A stretch of DNA of 24,451 bases, from positions 1-24,451 of the forward strand of contig JBKHIW010000001.1 of the NCBI GenBank assembly GCA_046538465.1, written 5' to 3'. Source of the DNA: Desulfobacteraceae bacterium. GTDB lineage: Bacteria; Desulfobacterota; DSM-4660; Desulfatiglandales; HGW-15. Under the pieces are notes generated by a model. It saw nothing but the letters and a program-made list of their open reading frames with translations. It made no database searches and was not told the DNA's origin. Made by a program: the position numbers and the translations under genes. Positions 2,440 through 22,259 of the stretch are shown in pieces; within the stretch, counting starts at the first letter, position 1, and every line of letters begins with the position of its first letter.

Positions 2440-3444
2440 TTACTCCTCGATATAGGACCGGGCCAAAGCAAAGTACTTCCCGGCGACAACGGCCGCCTCG
2501 TCCCGGGCGGTGGGGGAGACACCCTGGTCGTCCAACTGAAAGCCTATGACCTTTCCCCTGACGTATGCCCTGTAAACCTTGTAGAAGGTGAGGAGGCGCT
2601 CCATGCCGCTCTCGCACGCCGGCTCTGCATAGGCCCTCCAAAGACACCCAGCGGCCTCGTATCCGCCCCGGAACTCCAAATCCATCAGCAAAAAAGCGAT
2701 ATCCGCCAGTATATCAGTATACCTGAATCGATCGTTGAATTCTATGCAGTCTATTACCGCCACTTTTTCTTCATCCAGAAGGCAGATGTGCTCCATGTGG
2801 AGGTCGCCGTGACAATCCCGTATACGACCGCTGGAGACCCGTTCCTCAAAGAGCTCGGAGTACCCCTTGAAAAAGTCCTCGGTCCAACGTTTGATTTCAG
2901 CATAGTCCTGCGAGTCTATTGTACGTCCTATATACGGCGCGGTCTGCTCAAAGTTCTCGTCCGTGTTGACCTTGAAGTTCTCCCAATGACCGAAGTTGTC
3001 GATCGTCGGCGAGCGCGCGGCCTTTAGATGGAAATCGGCCAGGACTCGGGCCACCCTCTTCAAGTGATGCTCCTTGAGCTCTCCCCGCTCATACAAATAG
3101 CGCATGAGCCTCTGTTCAGGAATACGTCTCATCCGCACGGCATAGTCAACTGTTTCCCCGGACCCGCCAAGGCGGTCCCTTCCCTTGTCCCTGGTCACAG
3201 GGATCACCCCCAGGTATATGTCCTCGGACAGGCGTTGATTGAGCCTGACTTCCTCCCTGCAGTAATGTCCGCGGAGCTCCAGGGTGGAAAAATTCAGGAA
3301 GCCGAAGTCAACCGGCTTCTTGATCTTGTAGACGAAGTCATCTCCCACCAAGACCATGGATATATGGGTCTGGATTAGACGCACGTCTGTGGTGGGATCC
3401 GGCAGCGAAGATGGATCTAACAGGTCTTCAATCCTTGCAGACAT
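2440..3444 (-). CDS. Aminoglycoside-phosphotransferase-like kinase (COG2187-like)
   Basis: LIQTHIS, VYKIKKPVDFGFLNFSTLE, catalytic-loop RDCHGDLH and IDCIEF motifs typical of this family; 334 aa. Confidence 0.8.
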   Translation of the reverse strand: MSARIEDLLDPSSLPDPTTDVRLIQTHISMVLVGDDFVYKIKKPVDFGFLNFSTLELRGHYCREEVRLNQRLSEDIYLGVIPVTRDKGRDRLGGSGETVDYAVRMRRIPEQRLMRYLYERGELKEHHLKRVARVLADFHLKAARSPTIDNFGHWENFKVNTDENFEQTAPYIGRTIDSQDYAEIKRWTEDFFKGYSELFEERVSSGRIRDCHGDLHMEHICLLDEEKVAVIDCIEFNDRFRYTDILADIAFLLMDLEFRGGYEAAGCLWRAYAEPACESGMERLLTFYKVYRAYVRGKVIGFQLDDQGVSPTARDEAAVVAGKYFALARSYIEE

Positions 3445-3521
3445 CTCCTTCCCTTTCCGGCTTTTCCTGAACGAGCCCTGGATACCGGGCAGTCCGCGCT
3501 ATGTGCGGGCGGCCGCCCTGC

Positions 3522-3549
3522 ATCTTATTCAGCCGCCCTGCCCTGTCAA
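3522..3549 (-). promoter_or_regulatory. Candidate sigma70 promoter for the kinase-kinase-nadK-miaB operon
   Basis: Minus strand TTGACA (3549-3544), 16-nt spacer, TAAGAT (3527-3522), about 80 nt upstream of the 3444 start. Confidence 0.55.
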
Positions 3550-3667
3550 CCTTTTTATCTTCTGGTATCAGGACCTCTTCACTGTTGAAGGGCTTTGTGA
3601 TAACTACCTCTGTCCAGTGAAGCAAAATGCGGATCTCAGCGGATCCTGATTCCAGGGAGGGACTGTG

Positions 3668-4516
3668 ATGGGAATAATGGAGAGCGTGGATCGGGCGGCG
3701 GGCTTCCTGGCCTCCAAGGCGACTGAGCGACCACTGGTAGGCATGATAACCGGTACGGGCCTTGGTGGTCTCACCAAGGATATGGAGGTGGACATTCGTA
3801 TTCCCTACAGCGACATACCCGGGTTTTCCAGCTCCACTATTGAAGGACATAAGGGTACTTTGGCCTGTGGGAGGATATACGGCAAAAGGGCGGTGGTGAT
3901 GGAAGGGAGGCTCCATCTCTACGAAGGCTATGAGCCCGGTCAAGTCGTCTTTCCGGTTCGGGTGATGGCGAGAATGGGGGTTGAATGCCTGCTGATATCC
4001 AGTGCGGCGGGAGGGCTCAATCCATGGTTCATTCCGGGGGACCTTATGTTGGTGAGAGACCACATCAATTTGACAGGGAAAAATCCTCTGACAGGCCCTA
4101 ACCCGGAGGGCCTGGGGCCTCGTTTTCCGGATATGAGCAGTCCATATGATCCCCGCCTGATAAGGCTGGCTCGCAGTCAGGCCTCGGCCCTGGGAATAGA
4201 CCTTAAAGAAGGGGTTTATGCAGGAGTCAGCGGTCCCAGCCTGGAAACCCCCGCCGAGACAAGATTCCTCAGGGCTATAGGCGCGGATGCCGTGGGCATG
4301 TCCACGGTCCTGGAGGTAATTGCGGCGGTTCACAGCGGACTGCGTGTGGCAGCCGTGGTAGCGGTTACCAACGTCAACCTCCCGGACTGCATGCGGCCCA
4401 CTACGCTGGAGGAGGTAATCACTAACGCCGAGCGCGCAGCCCCTGCACTCAGGGCGGTATGGAGGGGCCTCCTGGAGACCCTGACTCCTGAGGGCGATCC
4501 GACTGAAAGAGGCTGA
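3668..4516 (+). CDS. punA: Purine-nucleoside phosphorylase, trimeric (PNP-I/XapA-type)
   Basis: GTGLGG, GRLHLYEGY, SAAGGLN, DHINL, GPSLETPAE, GADAVGMST, VTN. AGGGAGG lies 7 nt upstream of ATG 3668 (track uses GTG 3665). Confidence 0.92.
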   Translation: MGIMESVDRAAGFLASKATERPLVGMITGTGLGGLTKDMEVDIRIPYSDIPGFSSSTIEGHKGTLACGRIYGKRAVVMEGRLHLYEGYEPGQVVFPVRVMARMGVECLLISSAAGGLNPWFIPGDLMLVRDHINLTGKNPLTGPNPEGLGPRFPDMSSPYDPRLIRLARSQASALGIDLKEGVYAGVSGPSLETPAETRFLRAIGADAVGMSTVLEVIAAVHSGLRVAAVVAVTNVNLPDCMRPTTLEEVITNAERAAPALRAVWRGLLETLTPEGDPTERG

Positions 4517-4537
4517 TCTTAGAAATAGGAGGCGGTT

Positions 4538-5860
4538 ATGGAGCATGCCGACATCTTGGTGGAAAACGCAACCATACTCACTGTCGATCTCGATAACACC
4601 ATTATCCAGGGAGGCTCAATAGCTGTTCGCGGTGACACCATAATCCATGTGGGGTCCCCGGCAGGCAGCGAGTGGCGAGCGGAGACGAAAATCGACGCCA
4701 AGGGAGGAATAGTGCTTCCCGGACTGGTGAACGCCCATACCCATGCAGCCATGACCCTCTTCCGGGGATTGGCCGACGACCTGCCGCTGATGGAGTGGCT
4801 GACCGACTATATTTTTCCGGTGGAAAAACGCATGGACGCCGATTTTGTAAGGACAGGGAGCCTTCTAGCCTGCGCTGAAATGATCCTTTCAGGCACCACG
4901 ACGTTTTGTGACATGTATCTCTTCGAGGCCGAGACCGCACGTGCTGCCGAACAGGCCGGTATGCGCTGCGTGGTGGGAGAGGTGTTGTATGATTTCGACT
5001 CCCCTTCCTACGGAGACCTTGAAAACGGCTTCAAGACTACCGAGGCCCTGATAAGTGACTGGAGTGGCCATCCTCTGGTATCAGTGGCAGTGGAGCCCCA
5101 CTCCCTTTTTACATGCAGCCCGGATCTCCTCGCCAGGGCCCGCGAGATAGCCGAAGCCGGTCAAGTTCCAATGGCCATACACTTGGCAGAGACCGAGAAC
5201 GAGGTTCGGAGGATACGGGAGCAATACGGCAGGCTCCCTGTTGAGCACCTTGCTGAGCTGGGGCTCCTGGGACCGGACCTGATAGCGGCCCACTGCGTCC
5301 ACCTTGAGGAGCACGAAATCTCCATGTTGGCGGAAGCCGGGGTAAAAGTGGTCCACAATCCGGAGAGCAACATGAAGCTCGCCTCGGGCGTTGCGCCTGT
5401 AACCCGGCTCCTGGAAGCCGGGCTGACTGTATCCCTGGGGACCGACGGCTGCGCCTCCAACAACAATCTGGACCTCCTATGCGAGATGGATACCGCCGCC
5501 AAGCTCCATAAGGTGCACACAATGGACGCAACCGCCCTGAGCGCAGAAACTCTCCTGCGCATGGCCACCATAGACGGGGCAAAGGCCTTGGGTCTCGACC
5601 CGGTCATAGGCTCATTGGAGCCCGGCAAAAAGGCGGACATGATCATCCTGGATATCGACGCCCCTCATCTCACCCCTTTGTACAATCCCGCCTCTCATGT
5701 GGTCTACTCGGCCTCGGGAAGCGATGTGCGCTGCTCCATAATAAATGGACGGGTGGTGATGGAAAACCGCGTGCTTCTCACGTTGGCACTCCCTGAGATC
5801 CTGGAGAGGGTAAAGCTGAGGGCCGGTGACGTACGCACGTGGACGTCCAAAAAGGTATAA
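4538..5860 (+). CDS. mtaD: 5'-methylthioadenosine/S-adenosylhomocysteine (5'-deoxyadenosine) deaminase, amidohydrolase family
   Basis: NAHTHAAMTLFRG..DD..LMEWL..YIFP.E, HLAET, AHCVH, HNPESNMKLASG, LGTDGCASNN, GSLEPGKKAD; GGAGG RBS. Confidence 0.88.
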   Translation: MEHADILVENATILTVDLDNTIIQGGSIAVRGDTIIHVGSPAGSEWRAETKIDAKGGIVLPGLVNAHTHAAMTLFRGLADDLPLMEWLTDYIFPVEKRMDADFVRTGSLLACAEMILSGTTTFCDMYLFEAETARAAEQAGMRCVVGEVLYDFDSPSYGDLENGFKTTEALISDWSGHPLVSVAVEPHSLFTCSPDLLARAREIAEAGQVPMAIHLAETENEVRRIREQYGRLPVEHLAELGLLGPDLIAAHCVHLEEHEISMLAEAGVKVVHNPESNMKLASGVAPVTRLLEAGLTVSLGTDGCASNNNLDLLCEMDTAAKLHKVHTMDATALSAETLLRMATIDGAKALGLDPVIGSLEPGKKADMIILDIDAPHLTPLYNPASHVVYSASGSDVRCSIINGRVVMENRVLLTLALPEILERVKLRAGDVRTWTSKKV

Positions 5861-10900: not shown

Positions 10901-11237
10901 CATGAAAAGTGATCGTATTACTGTATACGGCTCTTCCGGCGCCCTTCCCATATGGATCGATACAGCCAATGCAGTGGTCAACAGCCCCTTTTATAGGAAA
11001 GGGCTTCGCCTGGCCGATCTGGCATTCGAGATTCGCCCCGGGCTTCTTAAAAGGCCCGAGGGCCTCCATCCCGTGGAGGTGGACGCAGCAACCGGACTGC
11101 CTGTCAGGAGGAAAGAGGAAAGGTCACCGGGAAGGACTGTATACATACTATCGAATGTGAATGTGGAAGACGGAACCGTGCGGCTCAACAGAGTGTTCGA
11201 GCCCATACAAGGAGCCGGTGAATATGGGAAAGACTAA
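7920..11237 (+). CDS. Class A penicillin-binding protein (PBP1A-like transglycosylase/transpeptidase) with large insertions
   Basis: N-terminal TM anchor. GT51 motifs EDKSFFDHPG, GGSTITQQTAK, KEQILEFYVN. Transpeptidase motifs SAFK (9438), SEN (9609), KTG (10764). 1105 aa. Confidence 0.9.
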   Translation: MAKSLRDATGLYIGERPKGFKVWKFFLYLALAALVGLLALLGAVYYDVSREAASRIQEGVIRRVIFSESPVYYDDGETLIGVFFEKTHRRYIDYEDIPKVFVKAIVAAEDKSFFDHPGFDLTAIMRAFVANIKAGRVVQGGSTITQQTAKNVFERQRRSYTAKLKELFQALLLERKYSKEQILEFYVNQFFVSGFGRGLQIASRYFFDKDAKDLDLVESAFIAGCVKGPNRYNPFIKKTETEKERALREAETRKDYVLDQMLALNFITSEEHRRACDREIPFKEGRVTYRLNVILDYVREQLQSPYFRTVLEEEGIENIATSGIRIYTSINRELQRGALKGLRTHLPKLDVQLLGYDGKALQDRYAGLRENPSKLGDEGLPLIARVDSVNADPDRLNLRVSWEDGEGLIEFQGMRELGKAWIQGRRGPWASFEKEEAKEFLGLFEEGDLVAVAPDEGQGTNGLCLTQIPELEGGTIILQDGMIRAMAGGYFNHHFNRAADAKRQMGSAFKPLVYTAALQLKWNPLDLLKNTKDAFNFEKTSYLPNPDHEPQSEEVSMAWAGVKSENLATVWLLYHLTDHLNLSEFREVVKHIGLHRRSDESYQDYAGRIRDRHGVVVNEDALMEASFIEAKRAIESDVIFAGHAEALNNLRRLHYQVDKEALDLKDPAHRRILRLNYQRLKDLNIELKEILKRTRTLLNRVPTGREADERSHGELSALLGRFVIEDRGGQGRRRVVFPFTASGEREGLGNPLSLDQVLRDPGLLDPGRIWIDALLPSEVLDFLRSSMVSIYKDLKSQQRYDLELLYRIRDFRTLVNLHYVLELARRSGISTPLDPVLSFPLGSNAVGIAEMARAYHTMMCGRVRPLGRTLSEEMIPVIKRIEDRQGELIWEYQGGGLEILSPKISGMISEILRLVIEEGTGKRARGKVLLSVPAGDGDEIELPIPAFGKTGTANRFTNSAFMGFVPGPGGESNALDRERGFVIATYAGFDDNSPMKSDRITVYGSSGALPIWIDTANAVVNSPFYRKGLRLADLAFEIRPGLLKRPEGLHPVEVDAATGLPVRRKEERSPGRTVYILSNVNVEDGTVRLNRVFEPIQGAGEYGKD

Positions 11238-12633
11238 ACTGGGAAAAATCACGCTTCTCCTGTCTTTCATTCTTCTGGTGGGGACGGCCGGGGGCTGTGC
11301 ACCCGGCCGGATCGGCTTCCCCGCAGCTGAAAAGGAGATCCGGACAGAAGAACCCTTGCTCGACCCGTCCGAGGTGGAAAGGCGTATAGACCGATTGGAA
11401 GAGGCCTTGACAAAGGATCTTGACGAAGAAAGAGAGGCCGAGCTTCAAAGACTGCTCTCGGACTACCGGAAGACACGCTCTTATCTCGGCCGTCCCGGTC
11501 GAAGCGGTGATGAAAAACATGTAGTAAAGATTCTTTATCATGCGCTGACCAGACTGGAGGAGAGCTACCTGGAGATGTCGCGGGCGGTCCGCCCTTCCCC
11601 TCCGGAAATAACGGGCGCTCTCTCAGATCAAAAAGAGCGCATCTTGAACGCTTATGTGGCCGGCGACCACGGAGCGGTGTTGAGCGGGCTCGATGATCTG
11701 GAGGCTGAATACGGGCCCGGCTATTTGGACCCGGCTCTTGGAGTGATCAAGGCCTTATCACTTGCAGAGCAGGGGAAAAAGGCCGAGGCCTTGGATCTGG
11801 CAGAAAAGATCCTCCCCGAGCTCGAAACCCGTCCCGGGTCGGCGGTGCTCAGAGGTAAGATGGTTTCCTGGTATGTGGAAACGAATCGTCCGGATCAGGC
11901 CCGTGCTCAGTATGAAAAGCTGGTGGATGATCTGCAGGAGACAAAGGTGGCGATCAACCGCGCGGGGAGAACACTGGCCCGCTTAGGCATTGAATCCCGG
12001 ACCGATATTGAAGCGATGGACGAGCCTAAGCCTCCACCCGGGGGGAAGGGGCAAACTGAACTCACCGGGACAGAGGATTTGATTAAGGAAGTAAACAGGC
12101 TCATAAGTGAGGGGGCCTTCCATGAGGCCAAGCTTCTCCTGGTCAGACACCGTATACGCTCGGCAGGCGAGGAAGACCGCGCGCTTATCGACCGGGCCAT
12201 GAAACGGGTGGAGGAGGCCGAAGCTCAGGCTGGAGAAGAGGATGAGCCTGCAGTTCAACGGGAATCCGGTTCGGGAGAGGCCTTGACCGATGCCCGCCGC
12301 CTGATTGAACAAGAGGACTACGAGGGGGCGCTGGCCAGCATAGAGGAGATGGAGCGGGAGGAGGCGTCTCTTGCCGCACTCCGCGACCTCAGGCGGGAGG
12401 CCACTGAGAAACTGATTCACAAGGAGCGTGAAGAGGCCGCCCAGCTCTATCTTCAAGCCAGAAACGCCAAGGACGAAAAAGAGAAAAAGGCCCTGCTTGC
12501 ATCTTGCTACAAGATTCTGCAAGGGCTTCTGGAGCGCTTCCCGGGCACGGATATGACGGAAAAGCTGGAGCGCAACCTGAAGACCGTACGAGAGGAAATG
12601 AAGTCTGTGGGCATGTCTCCTCCGCACCCCTGA
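11224..12633 (+). CDS. Putative lipoprotein, alpha-helical/TPR-like, function unknown
   Basis: From ATG 11224 (GGAG upstream): MGKTKLGKITLLLSFILLVGTAGG-C25, i.e. basic N-terminus, hydrophobic core and lipobox. Mature part is E/K/R/L/A-rich and helical. Overlaps the PBP stop by 14 nt. Confidence 0.7.
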   Translation: MGKTKLGKITLLLSFILLVGTAGGCAPGRIGFPAAEKEIRTEEPLLDPSEVERRIDRLEEALTKDLDEEREAELQRLLSDYRKTRSYLGRPGRSGDEKHVVKILYHALTRLEESYLEMSRAVRPSPPEITGALSDQKERILNAYVAGDHGAVLSGLDDLEAEYGPGYLDPALGVIKALSLAEQGKKAEALDLAEKILPELETRPGSAVLRGKMVSWYVETNRPDQARAQYEKLVDDLQETKVAINRAGRTLARLGIESRTDIEAMDEPKPPPGGKGQTELTGTEDLIKEVNRLISEGAFHEAKLLLVRHRIRSAGEEDRALIDRAMKRVEEAEAQAGEEDEPAVQRESGSGEALTDARRLIEQEDYEGALASIEEMEREEASLAALRDLRREATEKLIHKEREEAAQLYLQARNAKDEKEKKALLASCYKILQGLLERFPGTDMTEKLERNLKTVREEMKSVGMSPPHP

Positions 12634-15875: not shown

Positions 15876-16466
15876 TCAAAAAACCGCCGGCTTGCAGATC
15901 AACTCCCTGACCCTGAGGTCGAAGAGATGAAAGCTGTTTGCAGGCTTGAGCACCATTGCGGTATCGATCCCTGTTGAAGTTCCGCCTGTAGATATCACGT
16001 CCCTATCCGTTCGGATCAGCCCGGCGTCAGCGGCCATGAGAGCAAGCTCCACCGCCACCTTTGTACCTTGGCCGAAGGTGCGATAAGTGTAGGCGATTAT
16101 CTCATCGAGTTGGTATGTGGAGAGCTTGTCGCGCACCCCTCTCCCCACTCCTCCGAATGCGTGCTGGCAGGTGAGGACCTTGACTCCCGAGGCCTCCAGC
16201 CTCTCTCTCGCTTCTTGGCTGAGTTCCTGGTGATCGGGCTCTCGAAAGCCGGTGACATGGCTCACCGCCACAATCCGGATAGCGGAAGGAAAAACCTCCA
16301 GCGCCTCGAACGCGGTCTTTCCGCTGCAGGTAGGGATAAGGACTTTTTCTATGCCCAGCTCTCCAGCCCTTTGAACAACCATCTCCAGGACCCGGCGGGT
16401 ATTCTTCGGGCCCGGCTTGTCGAAATACTCACAAGATACCTGCCGGCAACCGGTAATATCAGACAT
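15876..16466 (-). CDS. Stand-alone pyruvate-kinase C-terminal-domain-like protein (COG1751/MTH1675-like)
   Basis: YFDKPGPKNT..VL, VSHVTGF, HAFGGVGR, RTFGQGTKVAVE..LMAADAG, GGT..GIDTA; GAGGAGG RBS. Confidence 0.75.
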   Translation of the reverse strand: MSDITGCRQVSCEYFDKPGPKNTRRVLEMVVQRAGELGIEKVLIPTCSGKTAFEALEVFPSAIRIVAVSHVTGFREPDHQELSQEARERLEASGVKVLTCQHAFGGVGRGVRDKLSTYQLDEIIAYTYRTFGQGTKVAVELALMAADAGLIRTDRDVISTGGTSTGIDTAMVLKPANSFHLFDLRVRELICKPAVF

Positions 16467-16586: not shown

Positions 16587-16607
16587 AAAAAAGGCCCCCT
16601 TGGGCCT
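16587..16607 (-). terminator. Intrinsic terminator after mqnL
   Basis: Minus strand AGGCCC-AAGG-GGGCCT hairpin followed by a U tract, 6 nt after the mqnL stop. Confidence 0.7.
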
Positions 16608-16612
16608 CCGGT

Positions 16613-18421
16613 TCAGCTCATATCCGCCCGGTTGAACGAAAGCTCTTCAGGCCACTCCCTGAAGTGCCCGTCCCATGGCCCTTTTGTACAGGCGTCGACC
16701 AGGATTTTCCTCCCTGAGACGCGGATATCCCGCTCGGCGTCCACATTGCTGCACGCCCTCCAAACCAGGCCTCGGTGGTCAAAGAGATCCACCCCTGAGT
16801 CGAACAGCACCAGGATGTTGAACGCCCGAGCAGCCTCCAGGCCGAAGAGCAGTTCTTCATAGTAGGAAGTGTTTCTGCCGGGGCCCCACTCCACACTGGC
16901 AAAGGCAAGCCCGTTTTTCATTGCCCCCTGCCCCCCATCCCAGGCCCTTGCATCCACCACCCCTGGCACCTGTTCCTTTATGGCATTCAAGGCCTTCAGC
17001 AGGGCCTCGCTTGACCGGTCGACCCCTTCGCAGCCAGGCTGCCTGGGAGGCTCTCCTTGGGCCCGGGATGTGAGGTCTATCCCGACCTTGCCTCCAAAGA
17101 CGGGCACGGGTGAGGCGTGGTCCAGTACGTCCAGCGGGCCCTTGCCCCTGATCAGGTCGGTCTCCGGGTCGAGCCGTTCCAAGATCAAGGCCGCGAGATG
17201 CAGGGGATCCCGAAGAGGGGTATCCGCATCCACTACTAGGACGGCCTTTGCCAGACTCATTTGGCCTTGACCCCATAGGCCGTAGATCGCCTGCCGGGCC
17301 TCTCCCGGGTATGATTTTTCCACTGCAACAACCACCAGGTTGTGAAAGACCCCTTCAAAAGGCAGCCAATGATCCTTGACCTGGGGAAGAAGCATTTGTA
17401 TCAGCGGCAGAAACAGCCGCTCTGTCGCCAATCCCAGATATGCGTCCTCCATCGGCGGAGGGCCCACCACCGTGGCGCAGTAAAGAGGATTACGCCTGTG
17501 GGTCAAGGCGGTTACATGAAATACGGGGTAGTCGTCGGGAAGGGAGTAGTAGCCGGTGTGGTCTCCAAAAGGCCCTTCCTTCCGGAATTCATCCGGATCC
17601 ACGTACCCTTCCAGCACGAACTCGGCCTCGGCCGGCACTTCCAGGTCGTTGGTCACGCACCTGGTCATTGAAACGTAGCGCCCCCTTATGAAACCAGCCA
17701 GCAATAGTTCGTCCACATTCCTGGGAAGGGGCGCGGTTGCTGCATATATGGTCGCGGGGTCGGCCCCCACGGCCACCGACACGGGCATCCTCCTGCCCGC
17801 CCTCCGGTATTCCTGAAAAAAATGCGCCCCGTCCTTGTGGGGATGCCAGTGCATTCCGGTGGTGGCGCGATCAAAGACCTGCATCCGGTACATCCCTACA
17901 TTCCTCTTGTCCGACACCAAGCTCCGGGTGAAGACGAGAGGGAGTGTTATGAAGGGGCCTCCGTCTCCGGGCCAGCAGTGGAGCACAGGAAGCTTTCGGA
18001 GATCCACGGAGTCCCCTTGGAGCACCACCTCCTGACACGGTGCGCGGCCCCGGTGCCGGCGTGGCAGAAAGCCGGCCATGGAAATCATAACGGGCAAGAG
18101 TCTGCGCGCGTCTCTCAGGCCCCTGGGTGGGGAGAGTGTGAGCAGAGATCGAAGTCTTTGCCCCAGCTGATCAAGATTCTCCACTCCCATAGCCATCGAG
18201 ATCCGTCTCATGCTCCCGAAAAGGTTGGTGGCGGCTGGAAACGGCGATCCTTCAACCTGTTCGAAAAAAAGCGCCTTGCCCCCGCCGGGGCTCTTGGCCT
18301 CCTTGTCGGTCATCCGACTGATTTCCAGGTGGGAAGAGACCTTTCGTCCTATTCTCTTGAGCTCGCCGGCTTGCTCCAGGCACTGGACGAACTCCCCTAT
18401 GTTCGCATACCACGTCTTCAT
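16613..18421 (-). CDS. mqnL: UbiD-family decarboxylase, menaquinone (futalosine pathway) type
   Basis: ATNLFGS, WPGDGGPFITLP, NVGMYRMQ, MHWHPHKDG, EGPFGDHTGYY, ATVVGPPPMED, GPLDVLDH, KVGIDLT; 602 aa with a C-terminal extension typical of the long form. Next to an MqnP-like domain. Confidence 0.88.
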   Translation of the reverse strand: MKTWYANIGEFVQCLEQAGELKRIGRKVSSHLEISRMTDKEAKSPGGGKALFFEQVEGSPFPAATNLFGSMRRISMAMGVENLDQLGQRLRSLLTLSPPRGLRDARRLLPVMISMAGFLPRRHRGRAPCQEVVLQGDSVDLRKLPVLHCWPGDGGPFITLPLVFTRSLVSDKRNVGMYRMQVFDRATTGMHWHPHKDGAHFFQEYRRAGRRMPVSVAVGADPATIYAATAPLPRNVDELLLAGFIRGRYVSMTRCVTNDLEVPAEAEFVLEGYVDPDEFRKEGPFGDHTGYYSLPDDYPVFHVTALTHRRNPLYCATVVGPPPMEDAYLGLATERLFLPLIQMLLPQVKDHWLPFEGVFHNLVVVAVEKSYPGEARQAIYGLWGQGQMSLAKAVLVVDADTPLRDPLHLAALILERLDPETDLIRGKGPLDVLDHASPVPVFGGKVGIDLTSRAQGEPPRQPGCEGVDRSSEALLKALNAIKEQVPGVVDARAWDGGQGAMKNGLAFASVEWGPGRNTSYYEELLFGLEAARAFNILVLFDSGVDLFDHRGLVWRACSNVDAERDIRVSGRKILVDACTKGPWDGHFREWPEELSFNRADMS

Positions 18422-18466
18422 GAACGCTCCTTGCCCAATGCGGGCTTTGCCTCTGTCTGCAGGCGG

Positions 18467-20125
18467 TCACCCGGCAGCGTGCCTGGCCACTTCATCGCAC
18501 AGGACTCCCAGAAAAAGAACCACCGAAATCGCACTGTTTACATGGAAAAAGGCGACGTGTATCCGCTCCAGGTCATAGGGCCTTACAATTCTGTGCTCCG
18601 CTGCCAGCAGGGCCCCTATCACCGCAAGGGCCCCCAGGTATACAGGACCGAGATCGAAGATCACCATAAGCAGGAACAGGCAGACAAAGGCCGCCAGGTG
18701 AAGCAATGAAGAGATAAAAAAAGCTGTCCTTATCCCGAATCGTGCCGGGATAGAGAGTAGCCCCGCCCGGCGGTCATAATCCAAATCCTGACAGGCGTAA
18801 AGTATGTCGAAGCCTGCAATATAGGCCAAGAGGGCCCCGGACAGGACCAGTATCCCTGGATCCAAATCACCGGTGACCGCGATCCAGGCCCCGACCGGGG
18901 CCAAGGAGATGGCGAAACCTAGATAAAGATGGGTGAATACAGTGAATCTCTTTGTGTAAGAGTAGGAGAAGAGTATCATCAAGACCGGGAAGGCCAATAT
19001 AAAGCAAAGCTTGCTGATCATCGCAGCGGATAATAAAAAAAGAGCCGAGAATCCCGCAACAAACAGGGAGGCCTGGGTGAAGGAGATCTCTCCGGCTGGG
19101 AGGGCCCTGTTCGCGGTTCTCGGGTTCTCCCGGTCATAGGTCCTATCCACTATACGGTTGAATCCCATGGCTGCAGATCTCGCCCCCACCATGGCGGCAA
19201 GTATCCAAAAAATCAGGCCCGGGGTTATTTGGTGCTCCCGTTGGGCCAGTACCACGGCGGACAAGGCAAAGGGCAGGGCAAAGACCGTGTGGGAGAACTT
19301 GACCATCCGCCCGAAAACCGCCACGGCGTCTCCAAGTCCGCCCTCCTGCGTGCACACGAGCCGATTCCTGCCTGACTCCAGATACTTCCATGTGCATAGT
19401 ATCCGCTCCAAGTAGTTGAAGACCTCATATATGATTACTCCCAAGAGGCTCATCCCCATGATACCGACAAACATCTGCTCATAGGCGAAGCGTCCCCAGG
19501 AGTCCATGATCAAGAATCCCAGTCCCCTGTCAGTGGCAAAGGACTCCACGAAAAAAAGAACGGCGATCCCCGTGCCCGTGCCTATTCTGAGTGCGGTGAA
19601 TCCGCCTGGCAGGGCCGCGGGCATCACCACGTGGCGGATCACGTCCAGGCCGGAGCCCCCCAATGAGCGCAGTGAGTCCACATACTTTCGGTCAAGGCCG
19701 GCCACCGAGTCGCGCGTGGCCACCAATACCTGATAGCCTATGATCATGCTGATCATGAAGACCTTGGAGATATCTCCGAGACCGAATATGATAAGAAAAA
19801 TCGGAAGAAGTACAATCTTAGGTATGGGGTATGTCAAGAATACGGCCGGCGAGAGCAGCTTATCGGCCCTTTGGTGAAAACCCAGAAGAACCCCGGTCGG
19901 AAAAGCCACCGTCCACGCAAGAGCCATGGCCGCACCCACCCTGAACGCGCTGGCGCCTAGATGCCTCCAGAACATACCCTCCTTTACGGCCAAGCCAAAG
20001 GCGGCAAAGGCCTGCTCCGGGGGCGGGAGCACGTTGGAGGAAAGGCCCCATGATAAAAGCTTCCACCCGCCTACCAACACGGCCACCGTGAGCGCATAAC
20101 GCATGATAGGCCCTGTCTCCCTCAT
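18467..20125 (-). CDS. Fusion protein: SsuC/NitT-type ABC permease (N-terminal) + MqnP/UbiA-like prenyltransferase (C-terminal)
   Basis: One uninterrupted ORF; ATG 20125 overlaps the ATPase TGA (ATGA); 552 aa. Permease part: LPPP, HL.AS..RV, PIPKIVLLP, EAA-like loop VDSLRSLG, MPAALP. UbiA part from about 19306: MVKFSHTVFALPFA, GARSAAMGFNRIVDRTYDRENPRTANRALPAG, YSYTKRFT, YACQDLDYD. Confidence 0.85.
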   Translation of the reverse strand: MRETGPIMRYALTVAVLVGGWKLLSWGLSSNVLPPPEQAFAAFGLAVKEGMFWRHLGASAFRVGAAMALAWTVAFPTGVLLGFHQRADKLLSPAVFLTYPIPKIVLLPIFLIIFGLGDISKVFMISMIIGYQVLVATRDSVAGLDRKYVDSLRSLGGSGLDVIRHVVMPAALPGGFTALRIGTGTGIAVLFFVESFATDRGLGFLIMDSWGRFAYEQMFVGIMGMSLLGVIIYEVFNYLERILCTWKYLESGRNRLVCTQEGGLGDAVAVFGRMVKFSHTVFALPFALSAVVLAQREHQITPGLIFWILAAMVGARSAAMGFNRIVDRTYDRENPRTANRALPAGEISFTQASLFVAGFSALFLLSAAMISKLCFILAFPVLMILFSYSYTKRFTVFTHLYLGFAISLAPVGAWIAVTGDLDPGILVLSGALLAYIAGFDILYACQDLDYDRRAGLLSIPARFGIRTAFFISSLLHLAAFVCLFLLMVIFDLGPVYLGALAVIGALLAAEHRIVRPYDLERIHVAFFHVNSAISVVLFLGVLCDEVARHAAG

Positions 20126-20844
20126 GCCGCCAACTCCCGGCGGACCTTGCTCACGCATTCGAAGAACTCCGGCCGGGTCCGCAGACCTGGTTCGCCAAAG
20201 CCCGGGTTCTCCACCAACGCCTTGACTCGAGCCGGGCGGTCGGTGAGGATCAAAACCCTCGCGCCAAGAAAAACCGCCTCCTCCACGCTGTGGGTCACCA
20301 CCACATAAGTCAGTCGGCGTCTGGTCCATGTCTCCAGCAAGGTGTTCTGCAGATTCTCCCGGGTAATCGCGTCCAAGGATGAAAAGGGCTCGTCCATCAA
20401 GAGGACTTCCGGCTCCACGGCCAAGGCGCGGGCTATCGCGACCCGCTGCTTTTGACCTCCGCTCAGTTGAACCGGGTATCTCTGCTTGAGCCCGGAAAGA
20501 CCCAGCTCTTTCAGCAGGGGCTCCGCCAGGGCCCTCATCCTTTCCTTGGAGGTCCTTCGTATCCTCAGGCCCAGGGTCACATTGTCGTAAACATTCTTCC
20601 AGGGAAACAGACCAAAGTCCTGAAGTATAAACGAGACCTCACAGTCCTTTCCCCGCCCCACATTCACCTCGCCCGAGGTAGGTTTCATCAGTCCTGCCAG
20701 TATATAGAGGAGCGTGGTCTTACCGCAACCAGAGGGGCCTATCACCGCCACTGTCTGCCCCTGGGCTACGGAAAAACCGATATCCTCCAGCACCGCCCCG
20801 TCCCTTGGATCATAGGTCTTGGAGAGGCCGCCCACCCTGATCAT
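20122..20844 (-). CDS. ABC transporter ATP-binding protein (SsuB/TauB/NitT type)
   Basis: GPSGCGKT, LSGGQKQR, LLMDEPFSSLD, VTH. ATG 20844 overlaps the binding-protein TGA (ATGA). Confidence 0.92.
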   Translation of the reverse strand: MIRVGGLSKTYDPRDGAVLEDIGFSVAQGQTVAVIGPSGCGKTTLLYILAGLMKPTSGEVNVGRGKDCEVSFILQDFGLFPWKNVYDNVTLGLRIRRTSKERMRALAEPLLKELGLSGLKQRYPVQLSGGQKQRVAIARALAVEPEVLLMDEPFSSLDAITRENLQNTLLETWTRRRLTYVVVTHSVEEAVFLGARVLILTDRPARVKALVENPGFGEPGLRTRPEFFECVSKVRRELAA

Positions 20845-21794
20845 CGGACCTCCCCCTGCCATACCATCTCCCTGTAGGAAGGGAGCTTGTCGACAAGGCC
20901 GCGGGAAGACATCCATCCCCCCACCTCTTCCAAGTCCTTTATCGGGGGCACCCTGGCATCCGGGAAGAGCGGCACCCTGTAAGCCTCTCCCACTTGCTCC
21001 GGGAACCTGGTCCGTCTGACCAGTAGGTCGCGGTAGGCCTCGGGGTTGCGGTTTATTCGACGGACCGCCCGACGGTAGGCCCGGACAAAGGCGGGGCCTG
21101 CATTCCCACCTCGCTGGAGAAGCTCGTTAGTCAATGCGACTACCGTGAGCGTGGTATCCAGCCCCCGGTCATCCAAGACCACCCGCCCTCCCTGCTGCTC
21201 GGCCAGAGTTAACAGGGGCTCGGGGAGAAGCGCTGCAGACACTCTGTCGGCCAGCAGGACCTGCAGCCTCACCGGGATCTTTTTGATTTCCTCCTTTACC
21301 ACAAAGCCCTCTTCCAGACCCTCCCTTTCAAGCAGGCGGTCCAAAAGGTATTCGATAATCGTGGCCCGCGATATGGCCACTCTCTTTCCCTCGAGATCCC
21401 TGTAGGTTCGTATGCCGCTCCCGGGCGCACCCACCACCCCGAACATCCGGTGGTCTGAATTTGTGCGAAAGGCAGTGGCCACGATCCTGACCTCAGCTCC
21501 CGCCCCTGCCAGCAGCAAGGTGTTGAGCAGATCGCCGAAGCAGCCGTCCAAGCGCCCCGCTTGTAGGGCGACGTCCCTTTCCATAGCGCTTTGAAAATAG
21601 ATCAGCTCCACTTCCAGCCCCTGCTCCTCGAATAAACCTTGTTCCTCTGCCGCTAGCAGGGGAAGAGTGTCCACCACCGGCAGCAGACCCAGGCGCACCG
21701 GGCCTCCGGCCGCGGGCGGTGATGGGAAAAGGAACAAGGCCAGGAGAAAGACCGGTCCTGAAATCCACTTCCCAACCGATCCTTTGCTTTTCAT
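20841..21794 (-). CDS. ABC transporter substrate-binding protein (SsuA/NMT1-like)
   Basis: Signal peptide, then VRLGLLP..D.LPL..AEEQGLF..QGL.VEL, AL.AG.LDG, DLEGKRVA, PEP; GGAGG RBS; 317 aa. Confidence 0.88.
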   Translation of the reverse strand: MKSKGSVGKWISGPVFLLALFLFPSPPAAGGPVRLGLLPVVDTLPLLAAEEQGLFEEQGLEVELIYFQSAMERDVALQAGRLDGCFGDLLNTLLLAGAGAEVRIVATAFRTNSDHRMFGVVGAPGSGIRTYRDLEGKRVAISRATIIEYLLDRLLEREGLEEGFVVKEEIKKIPVRLQVLLADRVSAALLPEPLLTLAEQQGGRVVLDDRGLDTTLTVVALTNELLQRGGNAGPAFVRAYRRAVRRINRNPEAYRDLLVRRTRFPEQVGEAYRVPLFPDARVPPIKDLEEVGGWMSSRGLVDKLPSYREMVWQGEVR

Positions 21795-21869: not shown

Positions 21870-22259
21870 TCAATCAGTTGTCGCAGCCCCCTCACGAAGA
21901 TCAAAGCCCAGGCCGGGAGAGGTCCTGGGGAAGAGCGTCCCTTGCCTCAGTATAACCGCCCCGCACGAAGGATCGCCTCTCAGACCGAGATGTCCGTCCA
22001 AGTCGGCATAGTAAACGTTCCCCCTGGCCAGGGCGAAGTGTAGCCCGGCCGCGATTTCGAGCTCGGCTTCGTCCATGCACCCCACCATAACCTCCAGCCC
22101 TGCCGCCTTTCCCAAAAGGTCGTAAAGGGCCGTGTCCACTGCGGCAAGCGCCGAGGGATTCGCTGCAAGGCCCGGACGGAGCCTCTCAAGCAGCTTGGAG
22201 ATGCGCAGAGGGTCCCTCCCGTCCGGCAAAGGGGCGGCCGTTATATGCTTTATTCGCAC
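21870..22259 (-). pseudogene. Internally deleted dipeptide (L-Ala-D/L-Glu) epimerase-like enolase-superfamily gene
   Basis: 129-aa ORF joining a short N-terminus ([10 protein letters not shown]), the capping-domain helix ([22 protein letters not shown]) and the C-terminal segment (EVMVGCMDE...YADLDGH...PGLG). The barrel core with KxK and the D/E/D metal ligands is absent. Confidence 0.8.

Follow-up and report, generated by a model that had tools for sequence, protein, structure and literature searches.

This analysis concerns a 24,451-nucleotide (nt) stretch of DNA from a Desulfobacteraceae bacterium (assembly GCA_046538465.1, contig JBKHIW010000001.1, positions 1-24,451), the whole of which is called the window below, and within it a group of four genes, all on the minus strand, that fill positions 16613-21794. 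They encode the components of an ATP-binding cassette (ABC) importer and two enzymes of the types assigned to the late steps of the futalosine route to menaquinone, and the importer's permease and the prenyltransferase are two halves of a single protein. We regard this fusion as the best candidate so far for an importer of the menaquinone ring scavenged from neighbours. The features of the unit are as follows (aa, amino acids).

20841-21794, minus strand: extracytoplasmic substrate-binding protein, 317 aa (Pfam NMT1 and NMT1_2; N-terminal signal peptide)
20122-20844, minus strand: ABC ATPase, 240 aa (Pfam ABC_tran, PF00005)
18467-20125, minus strand: permease::UbiA fusion, 552 aa (BPD_transp_1 followed by UbiA in a single open frame)
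19391-20125, minus strand: permease domain of the fusion, aa 1-245 (BPD_transp_1; six hydrophobic helices; EAA-type loop)
19310-19390, minus strand: putative cytoplasmic linker of the fusion, about aa 246-272 (variable in the alignment; aa 251-262 predicted disordered)
18467-19309, minus strand: MqnP-type UbiA prenyltransferase domain, aa 273-552, with the stop codon (Pfam UbiA; TIGR01475)
18428-18433, minus strand: AAGGAG ribosome-binding site of mqnL, read from the sequence
16613-18421, minus strand: MqnL, UbiD-family decarboxylase, 602 aa (TIGR03701; Pfam UbiD_N, UbiD and UbiD_C)
16587-16609, minus strand: terminator-like hairpin and U run directly after the mqnL stop, named from its shape and position

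The first three genes are joined by two ATGA overlaps, the ATG of the ATPase (20844-20842) lying over the TGA of the binding protein (20843-20841) and the ATG of the fusion (20125-20123) over the TGA of the ATPase (20124-20122), and mqnL starts 45 nt past the fusion stop behind its own AAGGAG; a preliminary description of this DNA had read these junctions in the same way. The starts of the longest open reading frames (264 aa and 620 aa) are too long, and the overlapping ATGs are plausible starts because the alignments of relatives begin there. The preliminary description also closed the unit with an intrinsic terminator, and a GC-rich hairpin of 8 bp with a U run behind it does stand at that place; it is absent from the list of a consensus terminator scanner and its folding energy is ordinary when compared with shuffled sequences (z = -0.74), so we call it a terminator on shape and position only.

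The joining of permease and prenyltransferase is not peculiar to this assembly. Among 5.8 billion proteins searched, more than 120, about 545 aa long and 50-98% identical, have both PF00528 and PF01040; they stem from many independent assemblies, and one comes from the cultured Desulfatirhabdium butyrativorans. When 23 fused relatives were aligned, both halves and the domain boundaries proved to be conserved, including the C-x-W-K that closes the permease, the opening of the UbiA fold and the two Asp-rich motifs. An artefact of assembly or frameshift can be rejected on these grounds and, judged by this recurrence, the fusion is real and old. The permease domain scores 62.7 bits against PF00528 (cut-off 26.4), its EAA-type loop is conserved around aa 150-173, and hydropathy gives six helices in this half, so that the linker, the start of the UbiA fold and its first Asp-rich loop would all be cytoplasmic, in keeping with both folds. 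AlphaFold2 models each half of the fusion confidently, with a predicted local distance difference test score (pLDDT) below 50 at linker aa 251-262 and a predicted template modelling score (pTM) of 0.53. A rigid interface between channel and enzyme finds no support in a model of this kind, and we read the predicted linker as a flexible tether instead.

How often the fusion arose is a separate matter. In the permease tree every fused form falls in one starred clade (99), with a few free forms nested within it, which favours one fusion event followed by a later split. In the UbiA tree the fused sequences fall into two or more groups, interspersed with free ones, and the starred branches force at least four changes; on the UbiA half, then, a single origin is no more than possible.

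The prenyltransferase half scores 179.6 bits on PF01040 and 289.9 on TIGR01475 (cut-off 180.8), and its Asp-rich motif residues N323, D327, D331, D447 and D451 are invariant in the 23 fused relatives. It is 55-63% identical to the free-standing MqnPs of many Desulfobacterota, which are followed by ubiX and mqnL and which at three loci (L064, L092 and L101) adjoin mqnA/C/D/B/E, and in a tree the fused UbiA domains fall inside the free-standing MqnP clade. From these comparisons the domain is identified as an MqnP orthologue. Fused forms retain 63 of the 68 columns in which free-standing MqnPs are near-invariant and no alignment column separates the two, so that we see no sign of an altered prenyltransferase substrate. 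Unlike the broader TIGR01475, three lineage-specific 'exception' models for MqnP in NCBIfam were not passed: NF041584 gave 232 bits (cut-off 420), NF041585 228 (cut-off 375) and NF041586 251 (cut-off 430). MqnL scores 616.5 bits on TIGR03701 (cut-off 495.9), an equivalog model of the decarboxylase in menaquinone biosynthesis. It runs about 150 aa past the 433 positions of that model (aa 450-602), and its relatives, at 606-621 aa, are alike in this.

On the transport side, the binding protein scores 107 bits on TIGR01728 (SsuA_fam), under the 163.5 cut-off, and so falls outside the SsuA subfamily by that model. Its AlphaFold2 model has a pLDDT of 90, and its Foldseek neighbours are SsuA, TauA, ThiY, Thi5, a thiamin-binding protein and PqqT with pyrroloquinoline quinone (PQQ), all at 14-21% identity. 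As ThiY with its pyrimidine and PqqT with PQQ show, the NMT1/SsuA fold already serves both the salvage of vitamin precursors and the binding of a carboxylated quinone. All 18 of the 18 orthologues carry export signals, as plain signal peptides, as lipoboxes in the spirochaetes and as a transmembrane anchor in the archaea, each form fitting the envelope type, and these signals place the binding protein outside the cytoplasm, as an importer needs. That it might instead be a cytoplasmic enzyme resembling MqnA or Thi5 was rejected, given the conservation of envelope-fitting export signals and a complete transporter set. The ATPase scores 111 bits on PF00005, with the Walker A motif GPSGCGKT, the signature LSGGQKQR and the Walker B motif LLMDEP, and its best NCBIfam matches are of the taurine, sulfonate and nitrate type, all under their cut-offs. 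The binding-protein fold, these ATPase motifs and a BPD_transp_1 permease with an EAA-type loop together make up an importer of the NitT/TauT type.

The order of binding protein, ATPase, fusion and MqnL is repeated in six genomes of the same order, with UbiX inserted in one of them. In more distant carriers the operon also takes in UbiX and a UbiE/MenG methyltransferase, giving the order binding protein, ATPase, fusion, (UbiX), (UbiE), MqnL. Ten more fused loci from species genomes share this layout, among them three Spirochaetota metagenome-assembled genomes (MAGs), a complete 4.9-Mb chromosome and Methanomassiliicoccus MAGs, so that Desulfobacterota, Spirochaetota and two Methanomassiliicoccus MAGs have this gene order in common. 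The preliminary description had asked whether orthologous binding proteins cluster with mqn genes, and at every fused locus that was examined they do adjoin MqnP, in its fused form, and MqnL. Genomes without the early pathway genes share no further gene beside the operon, and the flanks differ even within the genus. Some details of individual loci may be added. The two MAGs labelled Methanomassiliicoccus (L026, GCA_033485155.1, and L032) carry the whole operon with UbiE on contigs of 316 kb and 115 kb, the neighbours in L026 being genes for 6,7-dimethyl-8-ribityllumazine (DMRL) synthase and 3,4-dihydroxy-2-butanone 4-phosphate (DHBP) synthase and a TtuA-like gene. In the Syntrophorhabdaceae version (L027) a small gene of the LpdD_chaperone family (PF21758) follows the UbiD gene, at 11576-11986.

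The fusion is also associated with the absence of the early pathway genes. Our sample comprised 19 fusion genomes, and phylum-wide sampling gave just one extra among 401 genomes. Searches for PF02621, the family that MqnA and MqnD share, found no member in 12 of the 19 (our own genome, G072, G115, G105, G069, G129, G137, G151, G155, G159, G160 and G550), six of which are 93-96% complete; G072, of the same genus, is 95% complete. It is present in the other seven (G070, G152-G154 and G156-G158). Where MqnP is free-standing, PF02621 occurs in 25 of 26, 10 of 10 and 20 of 20 genomes, or 53 of 54 once two duplicates are removed. Early steps are therefore missing from 12 of 19 fusion genomes as against about one in 54 of those with a free-standing MqnP. 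The preliminary description had proposed looking for the association especially in genomes lacking the early steps, and like the other sequence-based checks that it put forward, this one favours its reading; Fisher's test on PF02621 absence gives p = 3e-8, a naive value since relatives are not independent. The genomes without early genes span at least four separate lineages (families f1 and f48, G160 and the archaeon).

The remainder of the pathway shows the same division. MqnC and MqnE (TIGR03699 and TIGR03700 being the models used for the pair) were not found where searched among the genomes without MqnA/D, so that both pairs are missing from our own genome (82% complete) and from G072, G115, G105 and G069 (93-96% complete); MenD and MenB are never above cut-off in the fusion genomes without early genes. 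These genomes retain UbiX, MenG/UbiE and two to four NrfD-type quinone-interacting subunits. The preliminary description had noted that no mqnA/B/C/D/E lies in the window, and no mqnA-E relative is found there or elsewhere in the 82%-complete assembly; its suggestion that the genome be searched for mqnABCDE, men genes and ubiX gave no MqnA/D, MqnC/E, MenD or MenB in either our own genome or G072, and UbiX and MenG in G072. The fusion is the sole UbiA-family gene of our own assembly, which consists of 404 contigs and has about 57% of the size of G072, and it is the sole strong one in G072; on these searches the classical pathway, with MenD, MenB and MenA, is missing. In G155 UbiX is present and MqnA/C/D/E were not found. 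Across a sample of 151 genomes from the order, MqnA/D occurs in just 29 and MenD above cut-off in just six; most genomes of the order, many of them more than 90% complete, have no recognised pathway for the menaquinone head group and no MqnP.

We consider it probable, from this combination of gene content and orthology, that the system imports a carboxylated naphthoquinol head group for salvage, most likely 1,4-dihydroxy-6-naphthoate. The substrate that we infer should be carboxylated, and should keep its carboxyl group through prenylation, because MqnL is required; 1,4-dihydroxy-6-naphthoate is favoured by the orthology of MqnP. The preliminary description had allowed a futalosine intermediate as an alternative cargo, which is unlikely where MqnC and MqnD are missing, since import of an earlier intermediate would then make no sense. 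Taking the direction of transport from the family type, the secreted binding protein would capture the soluble carboxylated naphthoquinol, likeliest 1,4-dihydroxy-6-naphthoate or its oxidised form, and the ATPase and a permease dimer would carry it into the cytoplasm. There the MqnP domain, tethered at the channel by a flexible cytoplasmic linker, would prenylate the head group, MqnL, with prenylated flavin mononucleotide from UbiX, would strip the carboxyl group, and MenG/UbiE would methylate the product to give menaquinone. MqnL would be co-transcribed with the importer-fusion unit. Organisms without mqnA/C/D/E, such as this genus, would be reliant on head groups released by neighbours, and those that keep these genes would scavenge alongside synthesis.

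Several observations weigh against this proposal or limit it. Seven of the 19 fusion genomes keep mqnA/D, the complete chromosome among them, and the fusion is apparently their sole MqnP. Since these seven genomes keep the early genes, import is not obligatory and the system is not one of salvage only; with the full pathway present, it would also work alongside synthesis, as thiamine precursor importers do. The substrate of MqnP is itself a prediction from comparative genomics (PMC4746308). The binding protein has no solved relative closer than the 14-21% identity given above, and its proposed ligand is tentative. Our own assembly, at 82% completeness, has no UbiX and only a partial UbiE match, and the missing UbiX is best ascribed to incompleteness. 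The AlphaFold2 model predicts no fixed interface between the two domains of the fusion, and as modelled it does not support direct channelling between permease and prenyltransferase.

There is also an unfused form of the transporter to be explained. In Desulfosarcina ovata AP021876.1 (L109, 2115321-2132268) and on three metagenome contigs (L110, L111 and L113), judged from the locus neighbourhoods, the three-gene transporter is unfused and MqnP and MqnL do not adjoin it, which again tells against the proposal. The binding protein of these loci is about 50% identical to that of the fused systems, and the permease, 65% identical to the fused permease domain, ends at the linker. In the permease tree the unfused permeases form one tight clade deep inside the fused clade, and we read them, on that placement, as a probable secondary split in one lineage. 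The transporter of Desulfosarcina ovata is annotated as a thiamine biosynthesis protein. L111 has two such unfused operons, and in L110 two UbiE-like genes and a UbiA gene other than MqnP lie within 3 kb of the unfused operon.

Three other explanations need to be set beside the import of a menaquinone head group. The importer might serve some other aromatic acid (4-hydroxybenzoate, 1,4-dihydroxy-2-naphthoate or a further carboxylated ring, for example), which would end in some other prenylated quinone or phenol. UbiA, UbiD and UbiX also act on 4-hydroxybenzoate in ubiquinone synthesis, the lineage-specific NCBIfam models for MqnP all stayed below their cut-offs and the binding protein is without a close characterised relative, all of which would suit this explanation. 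Yet the fused enzyme keeps 63 of the 68 near-invariant MqnP columns of genomes with mqnA-E and shows no discriminating column, MqnL exceeds an equivalog cut-off, and in seven genomes the fusion, as the sole close MqnP, co-exists with mqnA/D, while 1,4-dihydroxy-2-naphthoate is normally handled by MenA with no UbiD-type decarboxylase; a different aromatic acid is for these reasons unlikely. It is conceivable too that the head group is made by an unrecognised route, with the transporter bringing something else for that route or for the late steps, and the many relatives in the 151-genome sample without a recognised head-group pathway leave room for such biochemistry. Most of those relatives are also without MqnP, however, and so probably make no menaquinone in this way, no extra gene is conserved beside the operon where the early genes are missing, and the fusion to an enzyme that uses the head group points to the head group as the substrate. 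We give an unrecognised route little credence.

The transporter could, finally, carry an unrelated small anion, such as a sulfonate, nitrate or the thiamine pyrimidine, the fusion reflecting co-expression or co-assembly in the membrane only. Its family-level matches are indeed taurine, sulfonate and nitrate systems, and Desulfosarcina ovata has a close unfused relative of it, on its own and with the thiamine annotation. Against this, the SsuA subfamily cut-off is not reached, three phyla share the fusion and the operon order, which persist even at 50% identity, and the unfused transporters amount to one derived branch lying within the fused clade. Nor would an unrelated cargo account for the strong excess of carriers without the early genes, and we accordingly think it improbable.

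Five known systems come close to this unit. The late futalosine module of MqnP, MqnL and MqnM (UbiX) with MenG, of the SCO4491/4490/4492 type (predicted; PMC4746308), likewise has UbiA-type and UbiD-type genes in one operon, shared in the relatives of our locus with UbiX and UbiE, but in our unit an ABC permease has MqnP as its C-terminal half, a binding protein and ATPase come first, and most carriers are without the genes for head-group synthesis. ThiXYZ is also an NMT1-fold ABC importer, one that salvages a building block of a vitamin and may occur together with de novo synthesis, and its binding protein ThiY (3ix1) is a structural neighbour of ours; the identity is only about 16%, however, the ligand differs and the ThiXYZ permease carries no enzyme. 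SsuABC, TauABC and NrtABC, the best family-level matches, have the same three-component layout, Pfam families and single permease gene, whereas here their subfamily cut-offs are missed and the permease bears a prenyltransferase of 280 aa; there are no sulfur or nitrogen assimilation genes near the operon. PqqT (9b1u, 9ooz; PMC11331073) uses the same fold to bind a carboxylated aromatic quinone cofactor from outside, although at 17-18% identity, for an unrelated cofactor and with no downstream modification. A parallel in ecology is the salvage of 1,4-dihydroxy-2-naphthoate (DHNA) by organisms with only menA and menG (PMC4746308, PMC5738691), in which neighbours supply the head group and the late steps are encoded; that case belongs to the classical pathway and its importer is unidentified, while ours belongs to the futalosine branch and has a transporter candidate marked by the fusion.

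The gene next downstream of the unit has its own ribosome-binding site and is unrelated. Just past the terminator, at 15876-16466 on the minus strand, lies a gene for a lone protein of 196 aa, its only match being the C-terminal alpha/beta domain of pyruvate kinase, and this gene is not kept beside the operon in relatives. On the other side, an open reading frame of 129 aa (21870-22259, minus strand) joins the end of an MR_MLE N-terminal domain to the end of the C-terminal domain and resembles the remnant of an enolase-superfamily gene that has lost about 140 aa internally; in G115 (L020) about 420 nt separate the corresponding parts, and G072, of the same genus, has no such gene. Two further open reading frames, of 372 aa (3428-4546, minus strand) and 490 aa (11161-12633, plus strand), are without a Pfam family at E <= 0.01, and weak tetratricopeptide repeat (TPR) matches are the sole Pfam signal in the latter.

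An exchange of soluble quinone precursors among microbes has been proposed, with the transporters still to be found (Ravcheev and Thiele 2016, PMC4746308), and full-text literature searches returned no later description of the fusion or of a naphthoate importer. The fusion of an ABC importer permease to a biosynthetic membrane enzyme is an unusual architecture in itself; here it labels a candidate importer by attaching it to the enzyme that consumes the ring, in genomes that have the late steps only and yet have quinone-dependent complexes. Whether the protein is a transport-coupled prenylation machine, trapping the imported ring as a membrane lipid, we regard as a possibility falling just short of an even chance; it would then be the first identifiable importer of a menaquinone head-group precursor, with cross-feeding that supports quinone-dependent energy metabolism across anoxic communities. 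If this is true, the scoring of menaquinone capacity in genome-based reconstructions of sulfate reducers, syntrophs, spirochaetes and some methanogens would change, and, given that the system has reached Spirochaetota and the methanogenic Methanomassiliicoccus, such cross-feeding of the head group would extend even to archaea thought to be quinone-free.

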